Made by a program: the position numbers and the translations under genes. The notes beneath the pieces were generated by a model. That model was not told where the DNA came from and ran no database searches. It worked only from the letters and a program-made list of their open reading frames with translations. A DNA stretch of 64,000 nt from Acidobacteriota bacterium (GTDB lineage Bacteria > Acidobacteriota > UBA6911 > RPQK01 > JAJDTT01). Location of the stretch: contig OZ242374.1 in assembly GCA_965209055.1 (NCBI GenBank), positions 5,984,001 through 6,048,000 on the forward strand, read 5' to 3'. Positions 42,933 through 61,954 of the stretch are shown in pieces (position 1 is the first letter of the stretch; the number at the start of each line of letters is the position of its first letter).

Positions 42933-44027
42933 CTAATTGTTCCTCCTATTTCCTGCCCGTTGCCTGTTTGTTTCCGGTTGCGTTTGTGAGTCTTCGTTAG
43001 CCTGTGCCTCCCGAATGCTGGCCAGCGCGTGGGAACTGACGTACCCGGCGTAGCGCATCGTCGTGCTGATGGCCGAGTGCCCCATCAGCTTCTGCACCGT
43101 CCTCACGTCCACCCCCTGCATCAGCCAATGGCTGCACCGGAATCGTCTCAGGTCGTGAAATCCGACCTTCAACCCCACTCGCTCGGCGGCTCGACGTAGC
43201 GGCTTGTCCGGATTCACCCATCTCGTCCCTGTCCGGATGTTGACGAAGACGTAAGGGGTGTTCAGGTAGCGAACCAGCCGGACCAGATATCCGGTGGCGT
43301 ACTTCGACAGCGGAATCTCCCTCGGCTCGTCGTTCTTGGTGAATTCCACCCATAGCAGCCTCCGGGTTAGGTCCACCCGATTCCAGGTGAGCGACAACGC
43401 TTCGCCTTTCCGTATCCCCGTCTCGCCGATCACCGCAATCATGGCTTGCAGGTAAGGATTGTCCACCGCCTCGACCAGGTCGCGGAACTGTTGAACCGTC
43501 AAAGGCCGGAAGACCTTCTTGGGTTCTTTGAGTTTGGGGAACCTCACCAGCGGGTGCGTGTCCACTTCCCCGCACTCCAGCGCGTAGGAAAACAGCTTGC
43601 TGATGGCGGCAATGTCGCGGTTCACCGTGGCCGGTTGCACCTGCTTCTTCCTCTGGGCGACGTAGCGGTACAGGTCCTTGCGTTGGAACTCCTTCAGGGG
43701 AATGTTCCCCAGCATGGCGTTGAGACTCTTGAACGAGAGCGCATAGCGACGCCGGGAGCGCATGCGAGGTTTGCAGTACTCCTCGAAGAAACGCTCGTAG
43801 AAGCTCCGGACCGTCCAGATCTTGCGGTTCCCGCCGACAAGCTCCTCCTTGAGCTGCTTCCAGGTGCCATCCAGGATGCTCGACTCGATTCGTGTTTGAA
43901 GCGCCTGTGCGCTCCGGTAGTTGGGGGCGTACATTCGAAGCCGACCGGATCCGTTCGGCCAGTACTTGCTGACGACGAAACGTCGTCTCCCCCGGCGATC
44001 CTTCACCTTGTAGATGCCCATATGCAT
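42933..44027 (-). CDS. Tyrosine recombinase / phage-type integrase
   Basis: ATVNRD, ETGIRKGEA (R), TKN (K), FHDLRR (HxxR), LMGHS, TTMRY (Y); RBS AAAGGAGG (start 44027 or 44021). Confidence 0.95.
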   Translation of the reverse strand: MHMGIYKVKDRRGRRRFVVSKYWPNGSGRLRMYAPNYRSAQALQTRIESSILDGTWKQLKEELVGGNRKIWTVRSFYERFFEEYCKPRMRSRRRYALSFKSLNAMLGNIPLKEFQRKDLYRYVAQRKKQVQPATVNRDIAAISKLFSYALECGEVDTHPLVRFPKLKEPKKVFRPLTVQQFRDLVEAVDNPYLQAMIAVIGETGIRKGEALSLTWNRVDLTRRLLWVEFTKNDEPREIPLSKYATGYLVRLVRYLNTPYVFVNIRTGTRWVNPDKPLRRAAERVGLKVGFHDLRRFRCSHWLMQGVDVRTVQKLMGHSAISTTMRYAGYVSSHALASIREAQANEDSQTQPETNRQRAGNRRNN

Positions 44028-45580: not shown

Positions 45581-46423
45581 ATGCCGCATACTGTTTGTGA
45601 CCTCCGCTCTTGGGAGGAGTTAGAGGAGGAACTGAAAAAACTCCAGGAGCACTCGCTTGAACAGCGCCACTCAGCACCCCTGACGTTTCTGTATCGTGGG
45701 CAGGAAAACTCTTGCTGGCCCGTAAAGACAACGCTTGAACGATGGGCGGAGGGGCGAGAGGTTTCGTTCCGGCGATACTATGAGTTCATTTACCGAGTAA
45801 AGCCAGAGCTTGAGAGCTTCACCGAAGAGCGTTGGGATATCCCGGACCCCCAAGAGGTAGAACGCCTGACAAAACGTCGCGAGCCTTTTTCTTGCGATAC
45901 GGCGAAAGCCTTCAAAACTTGGGGGCTAGTTGGGAGCTACATGGTGCACTTGCGCCACCATGGGTTTCCCTCACCTTTCCTCGATTGGACTCGTTCACCC
46001 TATGTTGCGTCCTTTTTTGCTTTCCGGCAACCGATCAGGGATGCGAAAAAGGTGTCTCTTATCGTTTATCGAGAAATGCGAAATCCATCCGAGCATCCCA
46101 AGGTCTACTCTAGTGACTGGCCGGAAATATACATCCTGCCAAAGCTATACTCACCAACGCACCGAAGGCACTTCCTTCAGCAGGCGGAGTACACATTTTG
46201 CGTACAAAATAAGAAGAGCAAATGGCACTTTGGGCCACATGAGAGTGCACTCGGGCGGGGCGATTCCAATGTAGACGTCATTTGGAAGTTCAATCTCCCC
46301 GTAACCGAACGCCTGAAGGTTTTGAAGTTACTTGACAGGTCTAACATGAATGCGTTCTCGCTGTTTCAGTCTGAGGAAAGCCTAATGGAGACTGTGGCGT
46401 TTCGAGAACTGGATTGGCTGTAG
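45581..46423 (+). CDS. FRG domain protein
   Basis: FLYRGQ..W..KTTLER, LRHHGFPSPFLDWTRSPYVASFFA, R..QQA.Y, L...NMNAFSLF. Confidence 0.85.
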   Translation: MPHTVCDLRSWEELEEELKKLQEHSLEQRHSAPLTFLYRGQENSCWPVKTTLERWAEGREVSFRRYYEFIYRVKPELESFTEERWDIPDPQEVERLTKRREPFSCDTAKAFKTWGLVGSYMVHLRHHGFPSPFLDWTRSPYVASFFAFRQPIRDAKKVSLIVYREMRNPSEHPKVYSSDWPEIYILPKLYSPTHRRHFLQQAEYTFCVQNKKSKWHFGPHESALGRGDSNVDVIWKFNLPVTERLKVLKLLDRSNMNAFSLFQSEESLMETVAFRELDWL

Positions 46424-47163: not shown

Positions 47164-47955
47164 TTACGGGACCGTCTGGGACCTTCCCCATCCCTCGTCA
47201 GCAAGACGGGTGCAGTTTAGCTCCTCGACACGGAGACGCCACTGGGGCATCACCCGGTCCAAGATCTCCCGGAATCGGTCGTTGTGCGTGGGTTCGACGA
47301 GGTGGGCCATCTCGTGCACGACGACGTACTCGATGCAGGAAAGCGGCTTCTTGGCCAGTTCGGAGTTGAGCCAGATGCGGCGGGCCGGAGCGTTGCAGGT
47401 TCCCCAGCGTGTCTTCATGCGCCGGATGCGCCAGTCGGCCACCCGCACCCCGATCCTCGGCTCCCACTTGGCGGTCCACGCCGGGATACGCTCGCGGAGC
47501 CGAGCCCGGTACCATGCGTACAGCATCGCCTCGCGGGAATCGCGACCGGTAGGAGGACGGACCCGCATTTCGATCCAGGCGTTGCCCCTCACCCGCACGC
47601 CGGTCGGGCCGGGCGATTCGATCACGTCCAGCCGGTAGCGCCGGCCCTCGAAGTAGTGACTCTCGCCGGACACGAACTCGCGGCGGGACTGGCGCTCCTG
47701 CTTCAGGAACCCGTCGCGTTTTCGCCGAATCCAGGCCAGCCGCGATATCACCGCCAACCGCACGGCCTCGTCGTCGAGGCGCAACGGGGCGGCAACGCGC
47801 ACCCGTCCCTCCGGGGGGTAGACGCCCAAGTGCAGGTGCTTGATGTCCTTGCGGACGACCTCGACGGAGATGCCACCGACCTCAATGTGCGCGGATAGAA
47901 CCGATCTCCGGGAACTGGCGGGGCGGGAGGTCGGCCCGTGAAAATCAGTATTCAT
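47164..47955 (-). CDS. M48/YgjP-like zinc metalloprotease-domain protein (type I R-M associated)
   Basis: MKTRWGTCN, IWLNSEL, YVVVHEMAHL..HNDRF; overlaps hsdR stop. Confidence 0.88.
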   Translation of the reverse strand: MNTDFHGPTSRPASSRRSVLSAHIEVGGISVEVVRKDIKHLHLGVYPPEGRVRVAAPLRLDDEAVRLAVISRLAWIRRKRDGFLKQERQSRREFVSGESHYFEGRRYRLDVIESPGPTGVRVRGNAWIEMRVRPPTGRDSREAMLYAWYRARLRERIPAWTAKWEPRIGVRVADWRIRRMKTRWGTCNAPARRIWLNSELAKKPLSCIEYVVVHEMAHLVEPTHNDRFREILDRVMPQWRLRVEELNCTRLADEGWGRSQTVP

Positions 47956-50900
47956 TCCGTGCCTTCACGATGTCGAAGGTCGCGGCCGCGTTGGCCCCGT
48001 AGGCACCAAGCGCCTCGTGGATCGCCTTCCGGATGAGCGTCTCCTTGATCGGGTGGCCGCGCCACCCGTCCATCCGAGCCTTCCGAACCGCCTGATCGAC
48101 GGCCAGCGCGACGGACTCGCGTGTGCCGGTCCCAGGTTCAGTTATCGTCATCGGCGGCTCTTCCGGGAGGTTGTCGTAGATCGCGCGCAAGGCTGCGGTG
48201 TCGATGTTCGCTGGACGCGACCCGCCGTCCTCGCCGCACTTCACCTTCGCGGCCAGCGCGCTCACCCGCTTCAGGTAGTCTCCGTACGCGATCACCTCCT
48301 CGCGCCGTTGCCGGATCAACTCGTCGAGCAGCCTGGACATCCGTTCGTAGTACTTCGGGTTGACGGACATCTCATCCACGATCAGGCGCCGGACGTTGTT
48401 CTCGATGGTTTCCGCGACGGCGCGGCGGTTCCCCCGGATCCCGTCGGGCAGCGAGTCTACGGCGTCCCCGGCGCGTTCGACAAGGAGATCGACGAGCGTC
48501 ATGTCGTCGAAGGTGGAAAGAACCCCGGAGTCGTCGGCCCGGATGTAGGCGTCCAGAAGATGCCGCATCGCGGGCTCGAACATTTTCAGGTCCACGAAGT
48601 CGCCGCTGTTCAGTTTGACCTCTTGACGGACCTTCTCGTAGTGGTCCACTTCGTCCCGCGTGTCCCTCCGTTGGGCCTCCGTGTAGCCCGCCGCGATCAT
48701 CTCGTTGGCCAGGTCCGCGTAGCTGCGGAGGAACGCGGCGACGAGCCGGTAGAGGGTGAGGCGCTTGCGTTCGTTCGCGGCCAGTTGGCGAGCCGCCTCC
48801 TCACCGTCGCCCGTGCCGTCCTGGCAGAAGTAGCGCAGGTACGCTGCGGTATCGCGGGGCGGGTCGACCCCTTCGCAGAGCGCCCGAACCGCTTCGCGGG
48901 CCTCTTCCAGCCGCTCCCGCCCCCGTTCCAGGCGATCCGTCAACAGCTCTTCTACATCCTCGCGGCTGTAGCCCTCGAAGGCTTCGCCCGTGTAGTCCTG
49001 GATCGCGCCCTCCAGCGAGCGGAAGAGGTCCCTGTAGTCGATGATGTGGCCGTACTCCTTGTCCTCGCCATCGAGGCGGTTGACCCGGCAGATCGCCTGA
49101 AACAGAGCATGGTCCTGCATCTTCTTGTCGATGTAGAGGTACGTCGCGGGCGGGGCGTCGAACCCGGTCAGCAGCTTGTCCACGACGATCATGAGCTTCA
49201 TTTGCGCTGGGTCATTCACGAACCGTCGCTTGACCTCCTGCTCGAACTCATCGGCCTTGTGCATGGCCGTGTCCTCGGACTCTCCGAAGTGGTCTGCGAG
49301 CATGCGCCGGTAGACCTCGTACTTGAGCAGTTTCTCGGCCGGACCCTCCCCGGGGTCCTCGCCCGCGATGTCGCTGGCAGCCGGCTGGTATGACGTGATG
49401 ATCGCGCACCTGCCCTTCAGGTCGGTCGCACTGAAGCGCTGAAAGAAGCGGCAAGCTGCGTAGATGCTGTCGGACACGAGCATGGCGTTGCCCCGCCCGC
49501 TTTTCAGCCGGTCGCGCGTTTCCATGTCCATGAGGATGTCGTCCACGATCTTGTCGATCCGTTCGCGCGAACTCGTGACCTTCCGCATCGTGCCCCAGCG
49601 CTGGCGGAGCTGCGCCTTGGCAAGGTCGCTGAGCCCCTGGGTCTTGAGGTCGAACCACTGGTCGATCTTCGCCTCGGAGGTCAGGTGCTGGTCGATGTCG
49701 CGCGCCTCGTAACGCAGGTCGAGTACCACCTTGTCGCGGATCGCCTCGTCGTACTTGTAGGTGTGGATATACGGGCCGAAGGTCTCGATGCTGCGCGGCT
49801 TGTCGGACTTGAGCAGCGGCGTTCCCGTGAAGCCGATCAGGGTGGCCTCGGGCAGGAGTTTCTTCATCGCGCCGTGGAGTTTACCGGACTGTGTGCGGTG
49901 GCATTCGTCCACGAAGACATAGATGTCTCCGGCGGGGCGAAAGCCGCCGGAGATGTGGGCGCGAAGGTCGCTCACATAGCGGTCGATGTCGCCCTCTTCC
50001 GAACGGCCGAACTTGTGGACGAGCGAACAGATCAGCGACTTGGCGGGATCGCGAAGGGCCTCGGCAAGGTCCGCACCGCTCTTCGTGCGGTGGATGTCCT
50101 CGTCCACGCCAAGAAAGACCTTCTCGATCTGCTCGTCGAGTTCCTTGCGGTCGGTGATGACGAGCACGCGGCCATCGGTAACCTTCTCGCGGATCCACTT
50201 CGCGAGCCACACCATCGTGAGGCTCTTCCCGCTGCCCTGGGTGTGCCAGATGATCCCCCCATCCCGTCGCTTCACATGGGATTGCGCTGCCTTCACGCCG
50301 AAATACTGGTTGTGACGGCAGATCTTCTTGGTGCCCGCGTCAAACACCACGAAGTCGTGGACCAGTTCGAGGAGACGGCCCGGTGCACAGAGGTCGGCGA
50401 GTTCTTGGAGAAGGGACGAAGCGGCGTTCGACGCGGGTGAAGACGCGGCAGCCTCCTTCCAGCGCAGCCAGTACTTTTCCGGTGTGCCGACCACGCCGTA
50501 GCGGAGCCCCTGCGTGTCGTTGCCCGCCATCACCAACTGCACGGTGGTAAAGAAATGCGGGATGAAGTGCTTCTTCTGGTTGGCCAGGTTCTGGCGGATC
50601 CCCTCGGCCACCGACACGGTCGAGCGCTTGAGTTCGATGACCCCCAGCGCGATGCCGTTCACGTAGAGGACGAGATCGGGCCGCTTGGTGTTCCGGCCGC
50701 TGACCGTGACCTCTTCGGCGATGGCGAAGTCGTTGGCGAACGGATTGCTCCAGTCGATCAGATCGACGGTAACTGCCTTCCTGCCGACTCCGGGACTCAC
50801 CTTCACGCCGTACCGGAGGAGGCCGTAAACGTTCCGGTTAGCTTCGTAGAGCGTGCGGCTTCCGCCCAGTGCGGCGGCTTGCTCGAGCTTCGCAATGGCC

Positions 50901-51082
50901 TTCGCGATCAGACTCGCGGGATGGCCGCCGCGCTTGAGAAAACGGGTGAGGATCCGGGACTCCACGTTGCAGTTGCCGTCCCGGTCCTGCCAGTCGCCAA
51001 GGTAACGGTAGCCGAGACTGTCCCGGAAGAGCGCGATGACCCGCCGTTGCGTTTTGATCTCCTTTTCGCCGACGGGGGTCAT
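47945..51082 (-). CDS. hsdR: Type I restriction enzyme R subunit
   Basis: RPDLVLYVNGIALGVIELK, WHTQGSGKS, DECHR, GFTGTP, VVDKLLTGFD, QAICRVNR; ATGA overlap start 51082. Confidence 0.95.
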   Translation of the reverse strand: MTPVGEKEIKTQRRVIALFRDSLGYRYLGDWQDRDGNCNVESRILTRFLKRGGHPASLIAKAIAKLEQAAALGGSRTLYEANRNVYGLLRYGVKVSPGVGRKAVTVDLIDWSNPFANDFAIAEEVTVSGRNTKRPDLVLYVNGIALGVIELKRSTVSVAEGIRQNLANQKKHFIPHFFTTVQLVMAGNDTQGLRYGVVGTPEKYWLRWKEAAASSPASNAASSLLQELADLCAPGRLLELVHDFVVFDAGTKKICRHNQYFGVKAAQSHVKRRDGGIIWHTQGSGKSLTMVWLAKWIREKVTDGRVLVITDRKELDEQIEKVFLGVDEDIHRTKSGADLAEALRDPAKSLICSLVHKFGRSEEGDIDRYVSDLRAHISGGFRPAGDIYVFVDECHRTQSGKLHGAMKKLLPEATLIGFTGTPLLKSDKPRSIETFGPYIHTYKYDEAIRDKVVLDLRYEARDIDQHLTSEAKIDQWFDLKTQGLSDLAKAQLRQRWGTMRKVTSSRERIDKIVDDILMDMETRDRLKSGRGNAMLVSDSIYAACRFFQRFSATDLKGRCAIITSYQPAASDIAGEDPGEGPAEKLLKYEVYRRMLADHFGESEDTAMHKADEFEQEVKRRFVNDPAQMKLMIVVDKLLTGFDAPPATYLYIDKKMQDHALFQAICRVNRLDGEDKEYGHIIDYRDLFRSLEGAIQDYTGEAFEGYSREDVEELLTDRLERGRERLEEAREAVRALCEGVDPPRDTAAYLRYFCQDGTGDGEEAARQLAANERKRLTLYRLVAAFLRSYADLANEMIAAGYTEAQRRDTRDEVDHYEKVRQEVKLNSGDFVDLKMFEPAMRHLLDAYIRADDSGVLSTFDDMTLVDLLVERAGDAVDSLPDGIRGNRRAVAETIENNVRRLIVDEMSVNPKYYERMSRLLDELIRQRREEVIAYGDYLKRVSALAAKVKCGEDGGSRPANIDTAALRAIYDNLPEEPPMTITEPGTGTRESVALAVDQAVRKARMDGWRGHPIKETLIRKAIHEALGAYGANAAATFDIVKARNEY

Positions 51083-52650
51083 GGCTTGGTTGATTCGGAT
51101 TCGAGGATTTCCCAGCGCCCCTTCTTGGTCGGTCCCACATGACGGATGCGACCCGCCTTCCGGAGCTTGTCGAGATGGTATTTGACGCCTTCCGGCGTGA
51201 TCCCGATTCGGGAGGCCAGGGCGACGCGCGTCAATGTCGGATCCCTTCGCAGGAGAGCGAGAATGCGGTCGCGGGTAGGCATCGAATCTGGCTTGCGGCC
51301 TTCTTGGGCAGCTTCGCCGGTTTCCTGGGTAGTCTCGGCGAGTTGCTGGGTAGTCTCGCGGCCTTCTTGGGTAGTCCCTCGCTTGGCGCCTTGGGTTTCT
51401 TGGGTGGCCGCGCGAACGGAGCCAAGCTGCTTGCCATTGCCGCCCGCCCGCAAGATTCGGGTGATAAACCCCGCGCCCGCCTCGAACTCGGGCTCCGGCA
51501 GGCCCGCCTCTGCGCAACGCCGGATCATGTCCACCGTCCCGGTTCCCATCTTCTCGATGTAGCGGAGCAGGTACATTGACTCCGCGATCAGCGGATTGGC
51601 GGGCAGCGACTGGTGCGCCACGCGCAGTTTCTCCACCGTAAGCGGCGGCGGCAAGCGGCCGGAGTTCATGACCTCCAGCCGGTCGGCGAAGAGCATTACC
51701 TGAACACTGCTGTTGTCGGTGTAGTCCCGGTGCGCCACCGCGTTGACGATGGCCTCCGTCACGACCTCCTTCGGGATCTCGTAGGCCACAGGGGCTTGGA
51801 CCGTCTCCGCCCTCGTCCCAACGGTCAGAGCGATCTTGCTCAACACGAAGTCCACCGCTTGATCCACAAGCTCGAAGACCGTGCCCTTGTACACCTGGTG
51901 GGAAGGGATCGGCTTGGCGACCTCGGTTCCGTGGAAGTGCGCGCACTTGACCTCGGAAGAGATCAGGAAGCGTTGCGGGGTGCTGCCGAACAGCAGCACG
52001 GCGGCGTTCGTGAGCCGTCCCCGGTTCAGCAGGTTCAGGTGCCTGAGCAGGTCCGCTGGCGGAGTCCCCTCCGGCAGTGGGAACTGCCGCGATCTTCGCG
52101 CCTCGCGGATGAAGCGGTACATGCCCTCGACGTTCAGGTCGTCAAGTGTGGCTCCCGAGCAGCCGGACGCGTCGAACGGCCCGAAGCGCAACATTTGCCT
52201 CGCTTCCAAGTACTGGACGAGAGCGGCGTACAGGCCTGCCACCAACTCGGCCCGGGTAGCGAAACGCCTTCTCACCAGACCAGCTTGCGCCCTGCCGATC
52301 AGTGCCCACATCTTCGGGTGCCGCTCGGCTCCCTCGGAGCCCTTCAGAAAGATCAGCCGGTGCTTCTCCAGATCGGTGGCCCGGTCGAACTCGCGCTCGG
52401 TGGGCGAGATTCCGTTCCCGTCCTCGAACCCGTAGTCTGTACCGAATAGGCCAACGTAGATCTCGCACCGCTCGACTTCGCTCAGATAGACCTCGTCGGG
52501 TCTCCGGTCAGAAGCCGAGACGTCCTCGAATAGGAAGACTTCAAAGAAACGCCGCATCATCGGATCGCCGCGCAGGTAATCACGCAAATGCTCCCGCTCC
52601 CGTGCGAACTCGTACTGGACACTGCTGATGAAGATCCGGATCGGCGTCAT
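51079..52650 (-). CDS. DUF4062 + RecG-C/HATPase-like + HTH protein inserted between hsdS and hsdR
   Basis: RIFISSVQ.EF..ER, YVGLFG..YG, SPTEREF; EAIVNAVAHRDY, DRLEV.NSG, IEKMGTG; C-terminal winged HTH. Confidence 0.85.
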   Translation of the reverse strand: MTPIRIFISSVQYEFAREREHLRDYLRGDPMMRRFFEVFLFEDVSASDRRPDEVYLSEVERCEIYVGLFGTDYGFEDGNGISPTEREFDRATDLEKHRLIFLKGSEGAERHPKMWALIGRAQAGLVRRRFATRAELVAGLYAALVQYLEARQMLRFGPFDASGCSGATLDDLNVEGMYRFIREARRSRQFPLPEGTPPADLLRHLNLLNRGRLTNAAVLLFGSTPQRFLISSEVKCAHFHGTEVAKPIPSHQVYKGTVFELVDQAVDFVLSKIALTVGTRAETVQAPVAYEIPKEVVTEAIVNAVAHRDYTDNSSVQVMLFADRLEVMNSGRLPPPLTVEKLRVAHQSLPANPLIAESMYLLRYIEKMGTGTVDMIRRCAEAGLPEPEFEAGAGFITRILRAGGNGKQLGSVRAATQETQGAKRGTTQEGRETTQQLAETTQETGEAAQEGRKPDSMPTRDRILALLRRDPTLTRVALASRIGITPEGVKYHLDKLRKAGRIRHVGPTKKGRWEILESESTKP

Positions 52651-53945
52651 TGGCACGGTCCGTTTTCGTAGACAGCATCCTGGATCGGAAGTCGAATCGA
52701 ACCGGTAAGAAGCTGCTGCATCATGCCCTGCTTGAGGGCGCGCGTCTTGTCGCGACGCCGGTCTAGCGCGGCGATCTCCGCGTCCATGTCTGAGAGGGCG
52801 GCGGCGATAGCCCGCTGCTCTTGGGGGGGCGGGAATCGAAGCTCCGCAGAGGCGATATGGGCGCGGTTGGTGGCGTACACTTTCGTGCCGGCCGCGAGCC
52901 TCCGGAGATGATCCCGGAATCGGGGGAAAAACTGCAAGTACGCCTTGAAGCCGTCGGCGAGCACCGCCTTATTGAACCTCACCGCGATGGTGTGCAGTCC
53001 GGATACGAGTTGGTGACCCTCGCTCCCCATGATCTCGATGGACTTTCCCACACCTCCAACGTCCTCGGAAGCGTCAACGAACACGAGGTCTCCGTCGCTC
53101 AACCGATCAAGCCTTCTAGCATAATCCTTCGCCAAGGCCGGCAAAGCGGTGGCCGTCGGGTCAAGGTACACACGGGCGGATGTATGGATGTCTCCATAAT
53201 GGAGGTACTTCACTCCACCGCCGACTTCGCCGTTAGGCGCGAGGTAAGAGCGTGGGAAGCTACCATGCCGAAGGAATCGGAGATGGTTCCCCAGCCGCCT
53301 CGTCTCCCACTCACCTCGGAACCCCGGCAGCCGGGTCCTGCCGGTCAGAAGTTGCTGCATCGCCGCCTGCTTGATTGCCCGCTTCTTGGCGATCAGCGCC
53401 TCCAGCGACCCGATCAGGGCGTCTACGTCCATGAGGACGGCGGCGATGGCCCGTTGCTCGTGGAGGGGTGGGAGGGGGATAACATGCTGATGAACGTCAT
53501 TTCGATTCAGCGTTGGAACCCCGGAACCGGCGAGAAACCGAGCAACGCGGATATGGGTGTACAGGTAATAGATGAATCGCGGATCGTTGCGACGATAGGA
53601 TACAACCCAGAGAGCCGTGTTGTGTGGCCAATAGTCCTCCGCCACGAAGTGTACCTTGCCGATTGTTCCAGATCGTCCCGTCACCACACCTGGGCCCTTC
53701 ACCATAGCGCGGTTGTGGCGTCGCAAAATTCCGTTGGAATAGACAACGGGGTAACGTCCTGATCGGACTTGCGATGTAGGGAGATCGAATCCTCGCTGTA
53801 AGGGAGCAACATCACGGAGCGCCTTCGAGGCCCAGCCCGCCGGAAAGACGACCGCCTCGGAGCTTTGGCACCGTACGGCTTCGACCGGCGCATCCGCCGC
53901 ACGGTTCGAGGCAATGGCTATGCTGCGCCCCCGTCCTTCACTCAC
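52647..53945 (-). CDS. hsdS: Type I R-M specificity subunit
   Basis: Two TRDs with conserved PPLHEQRAIA...KQAAMQQLLTG and PPPQEQRAIA...KQGMMQQLLTG. Confidence 0.93.
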   Translation of the reverse strand: MSEGRGRSIAIASNRAADAPVEAVRCQSSEAVVFPAGWASKALRDVAPLQRGFDLPTSQVRSGRYPVVYSNGILRRHNRAMVKGPGVVTGRSGTIGKVHFVAEDYWPHNTALWVVSYRRNDPRFIYYLYTHIRVARFLAGSGVPTLNRNDVHQHVIPLPPLHEQRAIAAVLMDVDALIGSLEALIAKKRAIKQAAMQQLLTGRTRLPGFRGEWETRRLGNHLRFLRHGSFPRSYLAPNGEVGGGVKYLHYGDIHTSARVYLDPTATALPALAKDYARRLDRLSDGDLVFVDASEDVGGVGKSIEIMGSEGHQLVSGLHTIAVRFNKAVLADGFKAYLQFFPRFRDHLRRLAAGTKVYATNRAHIASAELRFPPPQEQRAIAAALSDMDAEIAALDRRRDKTRALKQGMMQQLLTGSIRLPIQDAVYENGPCQ

Positions 53946-54035: not shown

Positions 54036-56482
54036 TCATGTCGAGAGCCCCATTCGCCTAAGGTGACCCTCGACCATGGTGCCGTAGTCGTCAACCTGAC
54101 GCACGAGCTCCGGCAGCGCCTCGGAATACCGCGCTTCAAGCACCGTGATCCGTTCCACGAGCCCGTTCGTCAGGCGGTCCACCTGCCGGCCGATCCCGTC
54201 CTCCAAGCTGGCCATCCACTTGCCGCGCACCACCATGTTGGCGACCTCTGATGGAGTCAGAGCCACGTATCGCACTAGTATTTCCGCATCAAGCAAGGCT
54301 TGCGCATCCTTCGCTGCTTTCTTCGCCTTGGCTTCCGCCTTCATGAGATCCAGGCAGACCTCCAACGCGTCGCGCTCGTCGGGATTCCCGGAGCCACCGC
54401 GAATCTCCTTGAGCCGAGCCCTTACGGCCGTCTGCGTCACCTTCCCGGTGTCCGTCGTGGCACCGTGCAGCAGCCCGTCCTGCCCGTGTTCTCTTCTACA
54501 AACGCCTCCACCTCGCGCCCGATCTTCTCCTGCTCGCCCAGCAGGGCCTCCACCTCGCGCTGCTCGTCCGCGAAGTAGCGGCCGGCCACAAGATCGGGTG
54601 GAAGCAGGTCCATCTTGTACTTCGTGCGCCTGACCGTCAGGTCGGGAGACTCACCCGCTTGCCGTTTCCCGACCAGCACTCGCGGCCGCGCCGCCTCCGA
54701 CCAACCGCCGGTCACCACTAGGTACAGGTCGTCCTGCATGACCTCGTCCCAGTAGTCCATCAGACATTGGTAGACATCGTAGGGGTCGATGAGTGGAAGA
54801 TCGGCGAAACGTCCCAGTAGATCCTCGGATAGCTTCCCTATCAATGCCCTCGGGGATTCGCCCTCTCCGAGTCCGTATAAACGGGACTCATGCTCACGCC
54901 ACCAATCGTCGAAAGCGCTCCACACTCGCTCCCGGTACGCCGTGAATTCATCATGTCCGAGAACAACTACTCTGACCTCGTCCGGAGACCTGCACGCTTC
55001 GCTGTATCCCGGACGGCCACCCGGCACGAACAACGCCCGCCGCAAGCCGGGTAACACCTTCCAATAGCGGTCGAGAGCGTCGATGTCGGGGTCAGGGATC
55101 CCTCCATGGAGGTGCGCGCCGAGGTCGTGAAGATCCTCCGGCTCGCCGGAGTCGATGTAACGGGGGATGTTAAGGTTGTAGTCGTTTGCCTCGCTGGCGA
55201 TCTCGTCGAGTGGCACCATCCGCGCGTAGCCGGGCGTGTCGCGCTGGTCGTTGAAGACATCGACGATGCGGTGAATGTCGCGCTCGCGGAGACGGTTCTT
55301 GGCGCCGTCCTTACGAAAGCCCCCGCTGGCATCCACCATGAAGATGCCCTTGCGGGTGGCCGCGTCCTCCTTGTCGATCACAACGATGCACGCCGGGATA
55401 CCGGTGCCGTAGAAGAGGTTGGCGGGCAACCCGATGACACCCCGGATAAGTCCGCGCCTGACGAGATTGCGGCGGATGCGAGCCTCGCGGTTGCCGCGGA
55501 AGAGTACCCCGTGCGGGAGGATGATCGCACCCTTGCCCGTGCTCTTGAGCGATGCAACGAGGTGAAGGAGGAAGGCGTAGTCGCCATTTTTCGCGGGCGG
55601 GATGCCGTACTCGAATCGGCGGAATTCGTCGTGGTCCGGATCGAGACCGTTCGACCACGCCTTCGTGGAAAACGGAGGATTGGCGACGGCGAAATCGAAT
55701 CGCTTCAGGCGTCCGGGGCCGTCGGTGAATCGCGGTGCGGCCAGTGTGTTGTCGCGCTTGATCTCGGCTGCCACGTTACCGTGGAGGATCATGTTCATGC
55801 AGGCCATGGTCCACGTCGCGACATCCATCTCCTGACCGTAGATCGTCAGCCCGTTCGGTGCTTCGTCCGCCGCCTTAATGAGGAGTGACCCGGAGCCACA
55901 GGTGGGGTCATAGACGGCGCGGTCGAGGCCGGTGTCCGCGTCGATCCCGACCACCCGGGCCATGATGCGTGAGACCTCGGCAGGGGTGTAAAACTGCCCC
56001 TTGCTTTTGCCGGACTGCGTCGCAAAGTGCCGCATGAGGTACTCGTATGCGTCGCCAAGGAGGTCGTCGCCCTGGGCGCGATTCGCCTGGAAGTCGAGCC
56101 GCTCGAAGATCCCGACCAGCTTCGTGAGCCGGTCTGTCATCTCCCGGCCCCTGCCGAGCTTGCTCTCGTCGTTGAAGTCCGCTTGGTCGATCACGCCCTT
56201 GAGGAGGAAGTCGTTGGTGTCGGCGAGCTTCCGAATAACGACGTTGATGCCGTCGCCGATTTCCTTGCTCCCCTTGAGTGCCACCATGTCCGCGAATCCG
56301 CCCCCGGGCGGCACCTTGATCTCGGAATACTCGTCGTCTGCGCCCGAGTACTTGTCCGAGACGTACTTCATGAACAGCAGCGTCAGGACGTAATCCTTGT
56401 ACTGCGAGGCGTCCATGCCGCCACGGAGCTGGTCGCAGCTCTGCCAGAGCGAGGCGTGCAGTTGGGACTTGCGCAGGGCCAT
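54036..56482 (-). pseudogene. hsdM: Type I R-M methyltransferase, frameshifted near 54482
   Basis: LRGGMDASQYKDY, GQFYTP, YDPTCGSG, ANPPF, YNLNIPRY. Frame breaks after EENTG; adding one base continues DGLLHGATTDTGKVTQ into ORF 54036-54440. Confidence 0.88.
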
Positions 56483-57007
56483 GGTCGGCTCAACTTCCTG
56501 GCGCGGGCGGGCGCCGTGCGGGCACTGGACCACAACCTTCGAGCCGGCACAGGGATCGGAGGAAACGAGTCGCCCCGCCCCGGTCGGAGAACGGCGCCCC
56601 GCCGGGCCGGATCAGACGCTGGGACGTGTCTCCCCCGAGGACGTCGCGTAACAGGTCGGCCACTGCCCGACGGGAATTCGGAACCTCGGTCTTGGCCATG
56701 CCTCAATTTAGCATGTCGGGCCGGGCCAGTCCGGTGCGGCTTCCGTGTCGGGATCGGAGCAGGGCGTCAGACGCCGGCTGCGGCGATGACAAGCTGCACC
56801 CGCTTCTTCGTGGGCACGAACAGCACTGCCAGCAGTCCCAGCCCGATCAGTGCGTATTGAACGCGGACCGCCGAAGCGAGCACCGCCAGGCAGGCAGACC
56901 ACCACGCCGTCCAGGCATCTTGCGCGGACTGATGCGCCATCAAGGCGAGCACTGCCAGCAGCAGTGCCCAGGAATCTTCGCAGGAGCCTTCCCGCCAGGG
57001 ATATTTT

Positions 57008-57106
57008 GGACGGGAGCGACCCCACCAGGGAGTGTTGCGCAGATGTGAATTGCGCAACACCCCCGCGCCCGCACCGGGCAGCAAAAAGGGGGGGTCGCTC
57101 CCGTCC
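57008..57106. other. Nested inverted-repeat structure
   Basis: 16-bp perfect IR GGACGGGAGCGACCCC (57008-57023) / GGGGTCGCTCCCGTCC (57091-57106) enclosing GTGTTGCGCA-9nt-TGCGCAACAC (57032-57060). Confidence 0.8.
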
Positions 57107-57161
57107 ACCTCCATTTTCCCCGTGCGGCCACCCGGTGGCCGGAAATGGGGCCGCAACTGAC

Positions 57162-57330
57162 TGAAAGGAAACAAGCTCGGGGAGAGTGCATTTGTGAATC
57201 ACCGGGACCGCTTTTTGTGAATCCACCCCCCTTGTCCCATTCACATCCCGGATCGGGCGCGAGACCCTCTTTTCGCACTGCCGAAACAGCCCTCAATCAG
57301 CCTTTGCGACTGCCAAGTGCGTTCACCGCC
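57162..57330 (+). repeat. ~165-bp direct repeat, copy 2
   Basis: Aligns with 46696-46862. Confidence 0.85.
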
Positions 57331-57949
57331 AATCACGACCTGGAAGGAGTAACTTTCCGCCGTTGTTTGCCGCTCGACCGACTGCTTAAGTGCGGCCGTA
57401 ACCCGGCCGTAGGAGTTGAGCAGGCCTTGGTCGGTCGAGTGCCCCGGATCGACACGGACGAAGACGGTCCGGTCCGCATCGACGGCAAGCGGCGGCTTGA
57501 GCGCGAAGTCACGTAGGGTCTTCCCCACCGCCCCCGGCACACGCGCCGAGGAAGCCGTTGCCAGTGGACAGCGAGTGTGTCAGGGTTCGAGCGTTGCCCT
57601 GCGGTGCTGGCCAAAGATCGACACGGCCTTAAGAGTTTCAAGAAGATTCGGCATGGCCGGAAGCTAACACCGAAAGCTGACAATCGGGTCTTGTTCCCGG
57701 AGGGCCAGACGACGACGGCCCGCGCGGGTTTCTTCCCTTGCCCCCCCTTCGGTCCCTACGGTTCAGCCCGGATCGGGCAGGGGTCCCCATGGGGTCATGC
57801 GGCGTTGACAAGACAGGTCATGAGGAGGGCCAGAAGGATCAGCGCACTTGCGAGCTTGAGAGCGGTGGACCAATCGTTGAAGGGCCGACGGGGGCAATAG
57901 GTGCAGACCGTTTCATTTGGGGATTATATACGAAAGTTCCAGATTCCCC

Positions 57950-57978
57950 TTGACACACTTGGAACTTTCCTGTAATAT
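57950..57978 (+). promoter_or_regulatory. Putative sigma-70 promoter of transposase
   Basis: TTGACA-17 bp-TAATAT, then AAGGAG RBS. The spacer contains GGAACTTTC, an inverted copy of the TIR motif GAAAGTTCC. Confidence 0.6.
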
Positions 57979-58001
57979 CTCCTTGTAAGTAAGGAGATCG
58001 T

Positions 58002-58976
58002 ATGGCTTTCAAGGCACCCGGAAAACATTTCAGAGAAGGTCTTTCAGTCAAGCAGTTCTTCCGTCTCTTCCCGGATGACAAGGCTGCCGAGGCATGGTTC
58101 GCCAAGGAACGCTGGCCGGAAGAGGTCTGCTGCCCCTACTGCGGATCGGTCAAGGTCAACACCAAGACCAATCACAAGTCCATGCCCTACCGGTGCAAAG
58201 AGACGAAGTGCCGCAAGTGGTTTTCGGTCAAGACGGGAACGCCGATGCAGTCCTCGAAGCTGGGCTATCAGGACTGGCTCTATGTCCTGTACTGCATGGC
58301 GACGAATCTGAAATCGGTGTCCTCCATGAAGATGCACCGAGACCTGGAGATCACACAGAAGTCGGCCTGGTTCGCCATGCACCGCGCCCGCCACGTCTGG
58401 AACACGGACCCCGAGGAGCGGTTTGAGGGGCCGACAGAGGCCGACACCACGCACATCGGCGGCAAGCGAAAGAACAAGCCGTTGAAGGTTCGGGCCAAGC
58501 TGGAAGGCCGGGGAGCCGTGGATATGACCACGGTGGTCGGCATCAAAGACCGCAAGACCAATCAGGTCCGGGCGAAGGTCGTGCCGGACGAGAAGGGAAT
58601 CACGCTCCGGGGTTTCGTCTACGATCACACCGAACCGGAGGCGAAGGTCTACACTGACGACGCATCCGCCTACGAGCGGCTGCCGAATCATGATTCCGTG
58701 AATCACTCCCGGCTGGAATACGTCAAGGGTGAAGTCCACACCAACGGGATCGAGTCATTCTGGTCCATGCTCAAACGCTCCCATACCGGGACGTTCCACA
58801 AGCTCTCCCCGAAGCACTTGGACCGGTATGTCGGAGAGTTCTATGGCCGGCACAATATGCGCGGCAAGGGCACTCTGTCTCAACTGGCGGAGATGGCTGA
58901 CCGGCTGATCGGGCAGAGACTCCGATACAGCGACTTGACCGCCGATAACGGGCTCCCCTCCGGCGCCAGAAGCTAA
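58002..58976 (+). CDS. IS1595 family transposase
   Basis: Zn ribbon CPYC...C...C, FSVKTGT, TQKSAW..HR, EADTTHIGG, VYTD, HTNGIESFWSMLKR, HLDRYV.EF..RHN. Confidence 0.95.
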   Translation: MAFKAPGKHFREGLSVKQFFRLFPDDKAAEAWFAKERWPEEVCCPYCGSVKVNTKTNHKSMPYRCKETKCRKWFSVKTGTPMQSSKLGYQDWLYVLYCMATNLKSVSSMKMHRDLEITQKSAWFAMHRARHVWNTDPEERFEGPTEADTTHIGGKRKNKPLKVRAKLEGRGAVDMTTVVGIKDRKTNQVRAKVVPDEKGITLRGFVYDHTEPEAKVYTDDASAYERLPNHDSVNHSRLEYVKGEVHTNGIESFWSMLKRSHTGTFHKLSPKHLDRYVGEFYGRHNMRGKGTLSQLAEMADRLIGQRLRYSDLTADNGLPSGARS

Positions 58977-59057
58977 CTGAGGAAAAGCTGTGGGAAGGTC
59001 GTTGGGAAACCTGTTAAGTTCTTGTGTATCAACTGTTTACGGACGATTTTTGTTGAC

Positions 59058-59951
59058 ATGCCAAGTCTAGCAACCTACCCTGACGCCGTGTTAACGGAGT
59101 TCCCGGTCTCTCGACTTCCTGCCGTCAATGTCGCGCAGGTTCCTCAGCGTAGCCCGTTGAGGTATCCCGGGGGGAAAACGTGGCTGATCCCGCACATTCG
59201 GGAATGGCTCAAATCCGCAAGCGCGGAGATTCTGATTGAGCCCTTTGCCGGAGGCGGAATTGTCTCCCTGACAGCCGTGATGGAGGAACTGGTCGAACAA
59301 GCCGTGATGGTCGAGATTGACCATGATGTCGCGGCGTTCTGGCACGCGGCCCTGAGAAACGGACGCCGGATGGCGGATCAGATCCAAGAGTTCAATCCCA
59401 CCAGAGAGACGCTTATCGAGTGGGAAACTAGCCGCCCGCAGTGCGTCAATGAGCATGGCTTCCAGACCCTGGTATTCAACCGCACTCGACGCGGCGGGAT
59501 CCTCGCTTCGGGAGCGTCCTACATGAAGCAGGGAGAGAACGGGCGGGGAATACTGTCTCGCTGGTATCCCAAGACACTGGCCCGGAGACTGGCCGAGATC
59601 GAACGCCACGCAAGCAAGATCATCTTTTGCGAGGGGGATGGCCTCAAGCTACTCCCGCCTCTATTGCAGGGATGGGGAGATCGGGCCGCCGTGTTTCTCG
59701 ATCCTCCGTACACGGCTGGCGGGAAACGGGCGGGACGGCGCCTCTACACGGATCACCAAGTGGACCACGCCGAACTATTTTCCATACTGGCATCGTCCGA
59801 CGCCGACTTCCTGATGACCTATGATCTATCACCCGAAATCGTGGAGCTGGTCGAGCAACACGGGTTTCACGCCGTCGCCGTGGTGATGAAGAACACCCAT
59901 CACAACCGCATGGCGGAAATCATCATCACTCGGGAAAGCCTCTTCGAATGA
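59058..59951 (+). CDS. Dam-like (alpha class) amino DNA methyltransferase (start uncertain)
   Basis: SPLRYPGGK, EPFAGGG (motif I), FLDPPY (motif IV), LMTYD. Confidence 0.9.
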   Translation: MPSLATYPDAVLTEFPVSRLPAVNVAQVPQRSPLRYPGGKTWLIPHIREWLKSASAEILIEPFAGGGIVSLTAVMEELVEQAVMVEIDHDVAAFWHAALRNGRRMADQIQEFNPTRETLIEWETSRPQCVNEHGFQTLVFNRTRRGGILASGASYMKQGENGRGILSRWYPKTLARRLAEIERHASKIIFCEGDGLKLLPPLLQGWGDRAAVFLDPPYTAGGKRAGRRLYTDHQVDHAELFSILASSDADFLMTYDLSPEIVELVEQHGFHAVAVVMKNTHHNRMAEIIITRESLFE

Positions 59952-60799
59952 TCCGCTACGGGATCTCGGAGTGGTTCGGGCGTCCGTTCCTGTCCCTGAG
60001 TCCAAGTCAGAGACAATCCCTCGCCAGAGCTGCATTGCGCCACGATCCAGTCCCGCCCTGCCCCTTTCGTCGTGGATTGCCGGACTGCACCAAGAGAGGC
60101 GGAGTCTGTTCCATCCAGGAGTATCAGGGGGAAGGAAGCCGGATTGGAACGCCTACCGGTAATCCGGTGAGCGTGTGTCCGTACCGCTTCGAGGAGCGGG
60201 ATATCTCGGCTCTATGGCTGGCCGAGATCGTGGACTTTGGCGAGGTCTACATGGCTCGGGAAGTGCCCTTCATGGAGGGTGTGACCACCGGGAAACCCGC
60301 AGGGAAGATTGACTTGGTCCTGTCGAAAGACGAGGTGGCGTCAGAATGGGTCGGGCTGGAAATCCAGGCCGTCTACTTCTCTGGAAAGGCAATGGACAAC
60401 GACTTCAACGTCCTGCTCACTGATTCCGGTGATTCGCCCCCTATGGCCACGAAGAGCCGGAGGCCGGACTGGAGATCGTCCACAAAGCGGCTGCGATATC
60501 AGTTGGAGGTAAAGGTTCCGACGCTGCGAACGTGGGGAAAGAAACTCGCGGTTTCGGTGGACCTTCCCTTCTTCAACTCTATCGGGGGACCAAGTTCTAC
60601 ACCATCACACGATCTGAACGAGGGTGACATTCTCTGGATCGTTCCCCTGATTGACCTGGACCGCGGCTTGGTCCGCCACCACTGGGAAGTCCTTTCCCTG
60701 GAGGCATCCAGCCGCAAGCTGCTAGATGCCGCGCCCGTTAAACGTCGAGACTTCGAGTCTTACCTGCGCCGGAAGCTGGCACGACTGGAGACGCAATGA
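59948..60799 (+). CDS. NotI-family restriction endonuclease
   Basis: Four Cys (CPF, C.K.GGVCS, VCPYRF), IDLVL, LEIQAVYFSG, RRPDWRSS.KRL..QL..K; ATGA-coupled to the MTase. Confidence 0.85.
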   Translation: MIRYGISEWFGRPFLSLSPSQRQSLARAALRHDPVPPCPFRRGLPDCTKRGGVCSIQEYQGEGSRIGTPTGNPVSVCPYRFEERDISALWLAEIVDFGEVYMAREVPFMEGVTTGKPAGKIDLVLSKDEVASEWVGLEIQAVYFSGKAMDNDFNVLLTDSGDSPPMATKSRRPDWRSSTKRLRYQLEVKVPTLRTWGKKLAVSVDLPFFNSIGGPSSTPSHDLNEGDILWIVPLIDLDRGLVRHHWEVLSLEASSRKLLDAAPVKRRDFESYLRRKLARLETQ

Positions 60800-61005
60800 C
60801 CAAGCGAAAGAAGCCGAAGATCAAAGACGGGCGGACCATCGAACTGGTGAAGCACACCTACCAGCCGAACAAGGCCGAACTGGAGGAGGAGTTCAGCGTA
60901 GACGTTCCCGGTGCGACGGCCCTGGAGAAGTTCAAGCGGCTCACCCGTGCGATGGTGCAGCCGGTCAACGCTCGGCTGATCTCGAAACCGAGGAACCGGC
61001 GTTGA
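60796..61005 (+). CDS. Small basic hypothetical protein, IS passenger
   Basis: 69 aa, ATGA-coupled, ends 3 bp before right TIR; YQPNKAELEEE. Confidence 0.65.
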   Translation: MTKRKKPKIKDGRTIELVKHTYQPNKAELEEEFSVDVPGATALEKFKRLTRAMVQPVNARLISKPRNRR

Positions 61006-61435
61006 GCCGGAATCTGGAACTTTCGTATATAATCCCCTTTCATTTTGCCAATAGAGATTCTCCATTCGGCCATAGCTTCCCATGCGGCGTCGAGATCGTT
61101 GCGATCATCGGACAGTTCCACGGCGAACTGTTCATTGGCCGCTTTGTATTCAGGACCGTGAGCCCATTCTTCATTCATACGGTCAGCAATGGAATTACCC
61201 CGTTCAGTGAGTAGCTCTTCCTGCTTCGCCAGAAAGTCTTTCGTCTCTTCGAATATTGCCAGGTGAAGTTGCTCGGTATTCCCTTTGCGAATGCAAAGCT
61301 GTATGGTGTCGCGCACGATCTGTTGGGCAGTCATTTGTTTCTCTCCCCCCGCGCCCCCCTCTCTTCCAAGGGAAAGTTGAGTCGTGAGTTTTTCGTGGTC
61401 CATATCTGTCCTTGGTAGTACCTATCAGGGGCCGC

Positions 61436-61954
61436 CTAGTCCGCCGTCCCAAAACTCACCCACTTCCCCTCGTGGCAGTAGTAGGCAACAGCGGCCTTGT
61501 CGAGGAAGTAATCGTTGATGGCATCGTGGGTGCGCCTCTCGGGCAGTCCCTCGTCCATCTTGAAAAGAGGACCGACGTCAGGGGGGAGTGAACTGATGAC
61601 GCACGAGTACACCATTCCGAACTCACCCCACCCCTGAGTGCAACCGCTATCCGGACTCGCCCTGTCCAATACGCGGTTGCACTGCGCTCGTCCTCCCCAA
61701 AGGACGATGGTCTCCGACTGCCCATCCCGTGAACAGATCGCTGCCCAATCGGTCTGACCGGGCGCGGCGAACTCGCCGGAAATGATGTTCAGGGGTCTGC
61801 CAGACTTGAACGTGAAAAACGAGTGGGGCTGCGGGATCATGCAGCCCATTTCGTAGAATTCCTCTCTGATGTAGGCAGGCACCTTCTCGAAATCGAGCGG
61901 CGACATGTACTTGATATTTGGTGTCAACACCAGCAACGGCAGGAGCAGCAACAT
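61436..61954 (-). CDS. Putative exported Cys-containing protein (candidate immunity)
   Basis: Short hydrophobic N-terminus, several Cys, NIISGEFAAPGQTDWAAIC; 13 bp downstream of peptidase gene. Confidence 0.6.
   Translation of the reverse strand: MLLLLPLLVLTPNIKYMSPLDFEKVPAYIREEFYEMGCMIPQPHSFFTFKSGRPLNIISGEFAAPGQTDWAAICSRDGQSETIVLWGGRAQCNRVLDRASPDSGCTQGWGEFGMVYSCVISSLPPDVGPLFKMDEGLPERRTHDAINDYFLDKAAVAYYCHEGKWVSFGTAD

Follow-up and report, generated by a model that had tools for sequence, protein, structure and literature searches.

Can a single insertion sequence (IS) serve as the vehicle of a complete restriction–modification (R-M) system, and which of the genes between its ends belong to the vehicle and which to the load? 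This question is raised by a segment of 3.1 kb in a chromosomal stretch of an Acidobacteriota bacterium (assembly GCA_965209055.1, contig OZ242374.1, positions 5,984,001 to 6,048,000). The whole stretch of 64,000 nucleotides (nt) that was analysed is called the window, and coordinates are those of the window unless a genome position is stated. We find that window 57919–61037 is very probably an IS1595-family transporter insertion sequence (tIS) that is intact and carries a type II R-M operon. An earlier note on this DNA had proposed such an element, with perfect 29-bp terminal inverted repeats, an 8-bp target-site duplication and four intact genes inside, the last three coupled by ATGA overlaps; all of these features were recovered in the present analysis (Table 1).

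An inverted-repeat search over 57500–61500 returned a single long repeat, whose two 29-nt arms are 100% complementary (29 of 29 positions) and are flanked on their outer sides by one and the same 8-mer, TTTCATTT. The earlier note had asked for a genome search for further copies of the ends, and when the complete genome (6,077,182 bases in one contig) was scanned with up to 7 substitutions permitted, the 29-mer turned up at just two places, those of the element itself; as it is confined to these two ends even at 7 substitutions, their pairing is not due to chance. All four open reading frames (ORFs) of the interior are intact and lie on the plus strand. The ATGA overlaps fall at 59948–59951, between the genes of the DNA methyltransferase (MTase) and the restriction endonuclease (REase), and at 60796–60799, between the latter and a gene for a protein of 69 amino acids (aa). 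The MTase gene starts with ATG at 59058, with an alternative TTG at 59022, and its stop ends at 59951. The sigma-70-like promoter ahead of the transposase gene is a weak call (10 of 12 consensus matches; 2 sites against 1.0 expected in shuffles), and it is overlapped by an imperfect 23-nt inverted copy of the end at 57960–57982 (78% complementary).

The transposase matches PF12762 (1.5e-33, 116.4 bits, cut-off 27) and, along the entire model (positions 1–215 of 215), NF033547 (4.8e-47, 160.6 bits, cut-off 75). Its closest relative among 72,556 plasmid records is 39% identical, and the closest among 80 metagenome loci gathered with the window transposase (43–58% identity) is 58% identical. Transposase profiles, ends, the 8-bp duplication and the internal passenger genes thus agree on an intact IS1595-family tIS, as the earlier note had held. 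The ISNwi1 subgroup, whose ends read ggnnatTAT and whose passenger-bearing members span 1.7–4.7 kb, would fit both the GGGGATTATATAC start of the left repeat and the length of 3.1 kb.

That such units move as a whole is seen in their relatives. A scan of species-representative genomes with the REase profile gave 573 relatives, and the best 80 loci were examined. An MTase homolog lies immediately upstream of the REase gene, on the same strand, in 77 of the 80 (L038 has its upstream copy truncated where the contig stops), and in 16 of the 80 an IS1595 transposase or its remnants stand directly upstream of the MTase gene, again on the same strand. The transposase is near full length in eight of these 16 (L012–L015, L018, L027, L033 and L047). 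Three loci, L012, L013 and L015, are copies on one Dehalococcoidia contig, sharing a 24-nt inverted repeat that starts GGGAATTATATAC and flanked by three different 8-bp duplications (TTCTTAAT, CAACAAAT and TATTGTTT); such units therefore transpose whole. Duplications matching at 8 of 8 positions were also found in L014 and L027, at 8 of 8 with a one-base ambiguity in L018 and at 7 of 8 in L047, while L019, with a broken transposase, has none. The transposase-MTase-REase unit recurs in other phyla. The insertion of the present element can be read from its own sequence, and the movement of whole units from these multicopy relatives.

A quick REase tree of 72 rows, from which nine rows with internal stops had been dropped, contains two well-supported clades of 40 and 32 rows; all nine transposase-linked rows and seven of the eight remnant rows (the eighth, L059, being among the rows dropped) fall in the 40-row clade and none in the other. 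A 13-nt end motif, allowing up to 3 substitutions, occurs within 600 nt downstream of the REase gene in 9 of 39 loci of the IS-linked clade and in 1 of 32 of the other clade; because all nine of the former also have a transposase or remnants, the motif does not point to an IS origin of the remaining pairs. In a quick transposase tree of 52 rows, the transposases that accompany R-M genes are interleaved with those that accompany other cargo, L047 being sister to L103, whose cargo is different, with 99% support. This interleaving suggests that cargo has been exchanged between IS backbones, although more than one origin is not required by the starred branches taken alone. The window transposase itself groups with ISs of the same genus (support 90). 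The pairing of the two R-M genes is found on plasmids as well, where 10 of the 72,556 records have NotI-family genes, 30–39% identical, beside genes annotated as “DNA adenine methylase” in the order R then M; the pairing is thus general.

Turning to the cargo, the earlier note had left the NotI-family assignment of the product of 59948–60799 to a profile search. This product matches PF12183 (NotI) at 2.9e-40 with 138.5 bits (cut-off 22), over profile positions 16–224 of 238, and its AlphaFold model, built on a 30-sequence alignment, has a predicted local distance difference test score (pLDDT) of 91.4. With this model, the top four Foldseek chains, which are also all the hits at E ≤ 0.001, belong to NotI (3c25, 3bvq), with E values from 1.7e-8 to 3.1e-6, template modelling (TM) scores of 0.57–0.61 and 16% identity; the fifth rank follows at E 0.07. 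The best chain, 3c25_A, was matched at E 1.7e-8 with a probability of 1.00 and TM scores of 0.61/0.50. Residues C38, C47, C54, C77, D122, E138 and Q140 are invariant in all 30 aligned relatives, the four cysteines of the earlier note included. According to the review PMC4081073, NotI has a structural Fe-Cys4 motif, and a glutamine replaces its catalytic lysine. The four N-terminal cysteines and the E-x-Q of the REase would fit both peculiarities. NotI thus shares PF12183 with the REase and is its sole strong structural match; the REase differs from it in length (283 aa against 342–354 residues in the NotI chains) and in sequence, at 16% identity.

Relatives of the REase are numerous: 1464 proteins were found at E ≤ 1e-3 among 3462 candidates, nearly all of 272–312 aa. 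The closest is 76% identical and all others at most 62%. A phage collection searched with the REase gave no match. In the host genome, observed/expected ratios are 0.94 for GCGGCCGC, 0.95 for CGGCCG and 0.93 for GGCC, that is, no avoidance of GGCC-containing palindromes, which tells us nothing when the arrival is recent. Within the element there are 18 GGCC, no CGGCCG and no GCGGCCGC, expected counts being too low for these numbers to be meaningful.

The MTase belongs to the D12 class (PF02086, 4.8e-13, matched by its N-terminal part alone). EPFAGGG and DPPY show no variation in any of 27 relatives and motif I precedes motif IV, the alpha-type order, so the DPPY methyltransferase of the earlier note holds. 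The same note had left the product as either N6-methyladenine (m6A) or N4-methylcytosine (m4C), aptly so, and the evidence now leans to the latter. The family profile of the MTase matches PDB entry 7m6b at 1.4e-16 over positions 30–291, nearly its full length, against 2.9e-4 or worse for adenine enzymes, with 2.9e-4 for DpnII M1 and about 1.2e-3 for E. coli Dam, both by the N-terminal part only. Section 2.6 of PMC8616854 identifies 7m6b as M.CbeI, an alpha-class N4-cytosine MTase bearing DPPY; passages of PMC3425538 ascribe m4C in GGCC to M.CbeI and its relative DmtB, and relate that M.CbeI was annotated as a D12/adenine enzyme until it was tested. A DPPY motif does not, then, imply m6A. As the MTase family is far closer to M.CbeI than to Dam, the better guess is m4C, on a site that is G+C-rich and may contain GGCC. 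M.CbeI and DmtB share with the window enzyme motif I followed by IV, DPPY and an RYPGGK-type N-terminal motif, and M.CbeI is by far the nearest solved relative. It is nonetheless distant (63 bits over 260 residues), and these enzymes act on GGCC with a HaeIII-type partner, whereas the partner here is NotI-fold. The G+C-only site of the nearest characterised relative would suit such a partner.

The top PADLOC model for the MTase was PD-Lambda-5_B (1.1e-43). PD-lambda-5 is described, in the part of Vassallo et al. 2022 (PMC9519451) that concerns it, as a compact R-M plus abortive infection (Abi) system on a prophage. We rejected this identity, component B alone being matched, while neither the REase nor the 69-aa protein matches any PADLOC model.

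The fourth gene, for the 69-aa protein, had been described in the earlier note as ATGA-coupled to the R-M genes, but it does not belong to their operon. In a DNA search of 30 relatives, genomes of the same genus were found to contain multicopy ISs that match the transposase part of the element and, separately, a piece of the 69-aa gene. In three of them (G002, G005 and G007; loci L178–L182) these are ISs of 1.76 kb with ends GGGGATTATATACGAAAGT... and a transposase 58–61% identical to that of the window, in which a 60-aa homolog of the 69-aa protein (55%) lies directly before the right end. Their cargo is degenerate, a 110-aa Mrr-like nuclease fragment (PF22722, 2.5e-7) following a frame that resembles the N-terminus of an MTase. 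In L183 (1–876) the 3′ end of a transposase gene, cut by the locus start, is followed, without intervening cargo, by a 71-aa homolog and then the right end. The host genome contains a remnant at 5726197–5726405 (L002, about 1500–1710, minus strand), in which sequence like the left end is joined directly to a homolog of the 69-aa gene, of which the 3′ three-quarters remain, 81% identical in nucleotides; the remnant has the look of a related IS that suffered an internal deletion. Because relatives retain a homolog beside the right end whether they carry other cargo or no cargo at all, the 69-aa gene is, by these comparisons, a part of the IS backbone and not of the R-M pair. The protein may, we would guess with low confidence, have a role in transposition or its control.

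The 69-aa protein has no match and no helix-turn-helix (HTH) in Pfam, sub-threshold matches only in the ESM Atlas, and a poor AlphaFold model (pLDDT 66.9, predicted TM score 0.29); a word-based search gave six close relatives without names, and cluster look-ups gave no useful ones. The family is large: a profile search gave 670 cluster representatives at E ≤ 0.001, and still 76 when the limit was 1e-10, most of them 55–70 aa long. Shorter relatives follow the REase gene in L018, L047 and L022. At the same place in five loci of the REase scan (L012 at 6828–7064, L013–L015 and L027) we observed a different protein of 78 aa with a CxxC...C...H pattern; this Chloroflexota protein has no match in Pfam. 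Another side observation concerns G005, where a related IS copy (L183, 1181–2719) is interrupted by a 470-aa transposase-like ORF, a nested insertion.

The backbone is accompanied by quite different cargo elsewhere. Among the 80 metagenome loci no NotI-type REase was found; the end motif on both sides together with identical 8-bp flanks was present in 11, representing nine distinct elements of 1,296–3,112 bp. L102 holds a full D12 MTase, a 236-aa ORF of unknown kind and a homolog of the 69-aa gene; L103/L105 and L130 hold fusions of an N6_N4 MTase with HNH, L133 a KilA-N protein and L141 a T5orf172 protein. In the host genome itself, four further elements have this end motif and are bounded by perfect 8-bp duplications. 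Two have a transposase and unknown cargo: L187 (genome positions 2732331–2739795; 7,465 bp; duplication AATCGGAA) and L188 (1716560–1721358; 4,799 bp; duplication AATTGAAT), whose cargo ORFs, of up to 538 aa, have no match in Pfam and, for those scanned, none in PADLOC. The other two have GGGGATTATA... ends and are a transposase-less cassette of 1,372 bp with a gene for a trypsin-like protein (L189, 6066994–6068365) and a miniature element of 257 bp (4815243–4815499). Perhaps this IS1595 lineage works as a modular carrier of genes for DNA modification and defence, its cargo slot fixed in place by the transposase gene on one side and the small YQPxKxE protein on the other, R-M and MTase cargos swapped across bacterial phyla, the small protein acting as a new transposition or cargo-control factor and the NotI-fold/m4C-like pair having a new specificity; this larger picture is speculative, and we put it forward as a tentative idea.

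Transporter ISs of the IS1595 family are said, in papers citing Siguier, Gagnevin & Chandler 2009, to have been treated there. The tIS is an established category, stated in the relevant lines of the TnCentral preprint (10.1101/2021.05.26.445724; see also PMC3129680) to be “restricted to the IS1595 and IS66 families”. The present element resembles the IS1595 tISs in its single IS1595-type DDE transposase, short terminal repeats, 8-bp duplication and internal passengers. Moreover, the sections of Furuta, Abe & Kobayashi 2010 (PMC2853133) on such units report R-M genes between inverted repeats and 8-bp direct repeats, for which a relative provides the empty site, and cite Siguier 2009 for IS-associated R-M or MTase genes; one of these units, from Neisseria gonorrhoeae and with 26/26 inverted repeats, also contains a transposase-like gene (COG3677). 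Our element shares with them R-M genes that lie between inverted repeats and 8-bp repeats. The N. gonorrhoeae unit differs, as told in those sections, in that its transposase-like gene was judged probably inactive and its type IIG gene is truncated, and the X. oryzae unit in having no transposase, whereas here all genes are intact and the relatives multicopy. As IS1595 tISs and repeat-flanked R-M units have both been published, this kind of element is already described, and the window copy is a tidy, real example of it. Our literature searches, with supplements, ISfinder and REBASE outside their scope and a catalogue entry therefore possible, found no NotI-family R-M pair inside an IS1595 element; nor did they find any account of a small gene conserved at the distal side of a cargo slot.

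These data suggest the following working. The backbone would consist, in order, of left repeat, promoter, DDE transposase gene, cargo slot, 69-aa gene and right repeat, the slot being occupied by the alpha-type MTase gene and the translationally coupled NotI-fold REase gene, the latter coupled in turn to the 69-aa gene. The transposase would bind both ends and insert the entire unit of 3.1 kb, duplicating 8 bp of the target. Judging from their families, the MTase would protect the sites of the host and the REase would cut unmodified incoming DNA, and the pair may in addition make losing the element costly. An adjacent intact MTase and REase with their catalytic motifs make this a type II R-M system. 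We consider it a clean and complete case of an R-M system inside a single IS, the relatives of which jump as whole units within genomes and have spread across phyla, in direct support of the view of R-M systems as mobile elements. What the present analysis adds is the evidence for whole-unit jumping, the reassignment of the 69-aa gene to the backbone and the lean towards m4C. It also gives two leads: a large uncharacterised subfamily of short NotI-fold endonucleases with M.CbeI-like MTases, whose site might be useful, and a conserved small gene at the IS end with a possible role in cargo-bearing transposition.

Other explanations have to be weighed against this one. An IS1595 copy might have landed beside a resident R-M pair, the right repeat being the solo end of another copy. 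The element is indeed single-copy in the genome and no exact empty site was found, but two ends identical at 29 of 29 positions and flanked by one 8-mer are hardly what such an accident would leave, the same gene order recurs inside repeats with 8-bp duplications at three places of one genome and in other phyla, and the REase is missing from all five same-genus and all seven same-family genomes; we regard chance juxtaposition as scarcely credible. The 69-aa gene, in turn, could be read as an R-M controller or accessory, either a regulator resembling a C protein or an antitoxin-like partner, rather than an IS part. Its start overlaps the REase stop (ATGA), and small coupled ORFs follow the REase gene in L018, L047, L022 and L012. 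This reading is improbable in the face of homologs, 55–59% identical, that sit beside the right repeat of same-genus ISs without a NotI-type R-M pair, one of them cargo-free, and of others that go with the N6_N4 MTase-HNH fusion of L103 or the D12 MTase and unknown ORF of L102; besides, most IS-less R-M pairs have no similar ORF after the REase gene, and the protein itself lacks the HTH or any other Pfam match.

The two remaining alternatives concern what the R-M pair does, and each of them, though doubtful, deserves more weight. If the MTase were a Dam-like N6-adenine enzyme, the REase site would contain an A and would not be NotI-like and G+C-only. PF02086 is a D12 N6-adenine family, DPPY is classically adenine-type, there is a weak match to the “dam” profile TIGR00571, and plasmid homologs of the pair bear the adenine methylase annotation mentioned above. 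The match to TIGR00571, however, is of 36.7 bits, far under the cut-off of 114.85, and Dam-subfamily membership was rejected; the nearly full-length match to M.CbeI at 1.4e-16 stands against values of about 1e-3 for Dam and DpnII; M.CbeI too has DPPY and was annotated D12/adenine before testing, as the passages of PMC3425538 cited above relate; and automatic annotations are not experiments. An N4-cytosine enzyme thus remains our preferred reading of the MTase. The chief role of the R-M pair might also be addiction, stabilising the IS and its neighbouring island through post-segregational killing, rather than defence against phages. Such behaviour is established for several type II R-M pairs and is taken up in PMC2853133, both genes here are intact and coupled, and three copies persist in one genome; yet no evidence separates addiction from defence, the two roles are not exclusive, and a chromosomal IS, unlike a plasmid, is not lost by segregation. 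We would therefore not favour addiction as the main role of the pair over defence against incoming DNA.

Several observations count against our own interpretation and have to be set beside it. The whole element has no second full-length match in its own genome, so that the evidence for past movement of this particular copy, with the passengers inside its ends, is its target duplication. Among the matches listed when 30 relatives were searched with the flanks there was no exact empty site. In contigs of three other runs, each from a different other study, 57629 is followed at once by 61403 (two of the runs) or 57647 by 61378 (the third), with flanks 93–99% alike; these contigs are without the IS and also without 646 bp around it, the interrupted frame included, so that this is a strain-specific stretch and not a clean pre-insertion allele. 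The zinc-ribbon profile PF12760 reached 23.3 bits, under its cut-off of 25.4, although CxxC ... CxxxxC is seen in the translation of the transposase. Searches of the PDB with the REase sequence and with its 30-sequence profile gave no match, PADLOC has no model for it, and its predicted link to NotI comes from Pfam and a modelled fold at 16% identity. For the MTase, the lean to m4C derives from one nearest solved relative, and the Pfam and NCBIfam labels of the family are adenine-specific. Finally, both trees are quick ones with many unresolved forks.

Table 1. Features of the element, its insertion site and the neighbouring genes (window coordinates).
Feature	Position	Strand	Basis or remark
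Left target-site duplication copy, TTTCATTT	57911–57918	.	Identical to 61038–61045
Left terminal inverted repeat, 29 nt, begins GGGGATTATATAC	57919–57947	+	100% complementary pair
Sigma-70-like promoter TTGACA-17-TAATAT, inside left end, upstream of transposase gene	57950–57978	+	Consensus scan
IS1595-family DDE transposase, 324 aa, N-terminal Cys-rich zinc-ribbon-like region	58002–58976	+	Pfam, NCBIfam
Cargo gene 1: alpha-type DNA methyltransferase, 297 aa, EPFAGGG and DPPY, probably N4-cytosine	59058–59951	+	Profiles, alignment
Cargo gene 2: NotI-fold PD-(D/E)xK-type restriction endonuclease, 283 aa	59948–60799	+	Pfam, predicted fold
69-aa IS-backbone gene, invariant YQPxKxE, stop 3 nt short of right repeat	60796–61005	+	Homolog comparison
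Right terminal inverted repeat, 29 nt	61009–61037	-	Pair of left arm
Right target-site duplication copy	61038–61045	.	Identical to left copy
5′ part (about 97 codons) of interrupted putative open frame; tail about 57846–57918, minus strand	61046–61334	-	Flank joining
hsdM, type I R-M	54437–56533	-	Neighbourhood family scan
hsdS, type I R-M	52647–53945	-	Neighbourhood family scan
DUF4062/HATPase_c_4/HTH gene, inserted in type I system	51079–52656	-	Neighbourhood family scan
hsdR, type I R-M	47945–51946	-	Neighbourhood family scan
YgjP-like peptidase	47164–47955		Neighbourhood family scan
FRG-domain gene	45581–46423	+	Neighbourhood family scan
Tyrosine integrase	42933–44027		Neighbourhood family scan

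As for where the element came from, its G+C content is 58.1% against 62.8% for the genome, and the nearest REase relatives (60–76% identity) are from other phyla. Within the host phylum a REase relative at E ≤ 1e-10 was found in 5 of 300 other genomes, with a best identity of 41%. The best explanation would be that the element reached this genome by horizontal transfer and sits in a strain-specific stretch beside a type I R-M island. Given the type I R-M genes and the integrase upstream of the element, the “defence island” of the earlier note is a fair description. Its statement that the insertion splits a small ORF stood in part: once the two flanks are put together by their coordinates, a frame of about 120 codons reappears on the minus strand, interrupted near codon 99, but this frame has no family in Pfam (best E 0.051) and, as said, no exact empty site was found.

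Some minor observations were made around the insertion site. The contig of run X1 is mismatch-free over 57448–60891 except for an extra G after 57881, within a G run, which would, if real, shift the tail of the interrupted frame. Rfam gave nothing at E ≤ 0.01 over 56400–61200. A repeat of about 550–640 bp lies at 56986–57627, immediately to the left of the insertion region; at least 8 further copies, 87–92% identical, occur in the same genome, and many copies in genomes of the same genus. The right edge of this repeat coincides with the 57629 joint in the contigs of the other runs, and internal hairpins are found in it at 57007–57107.

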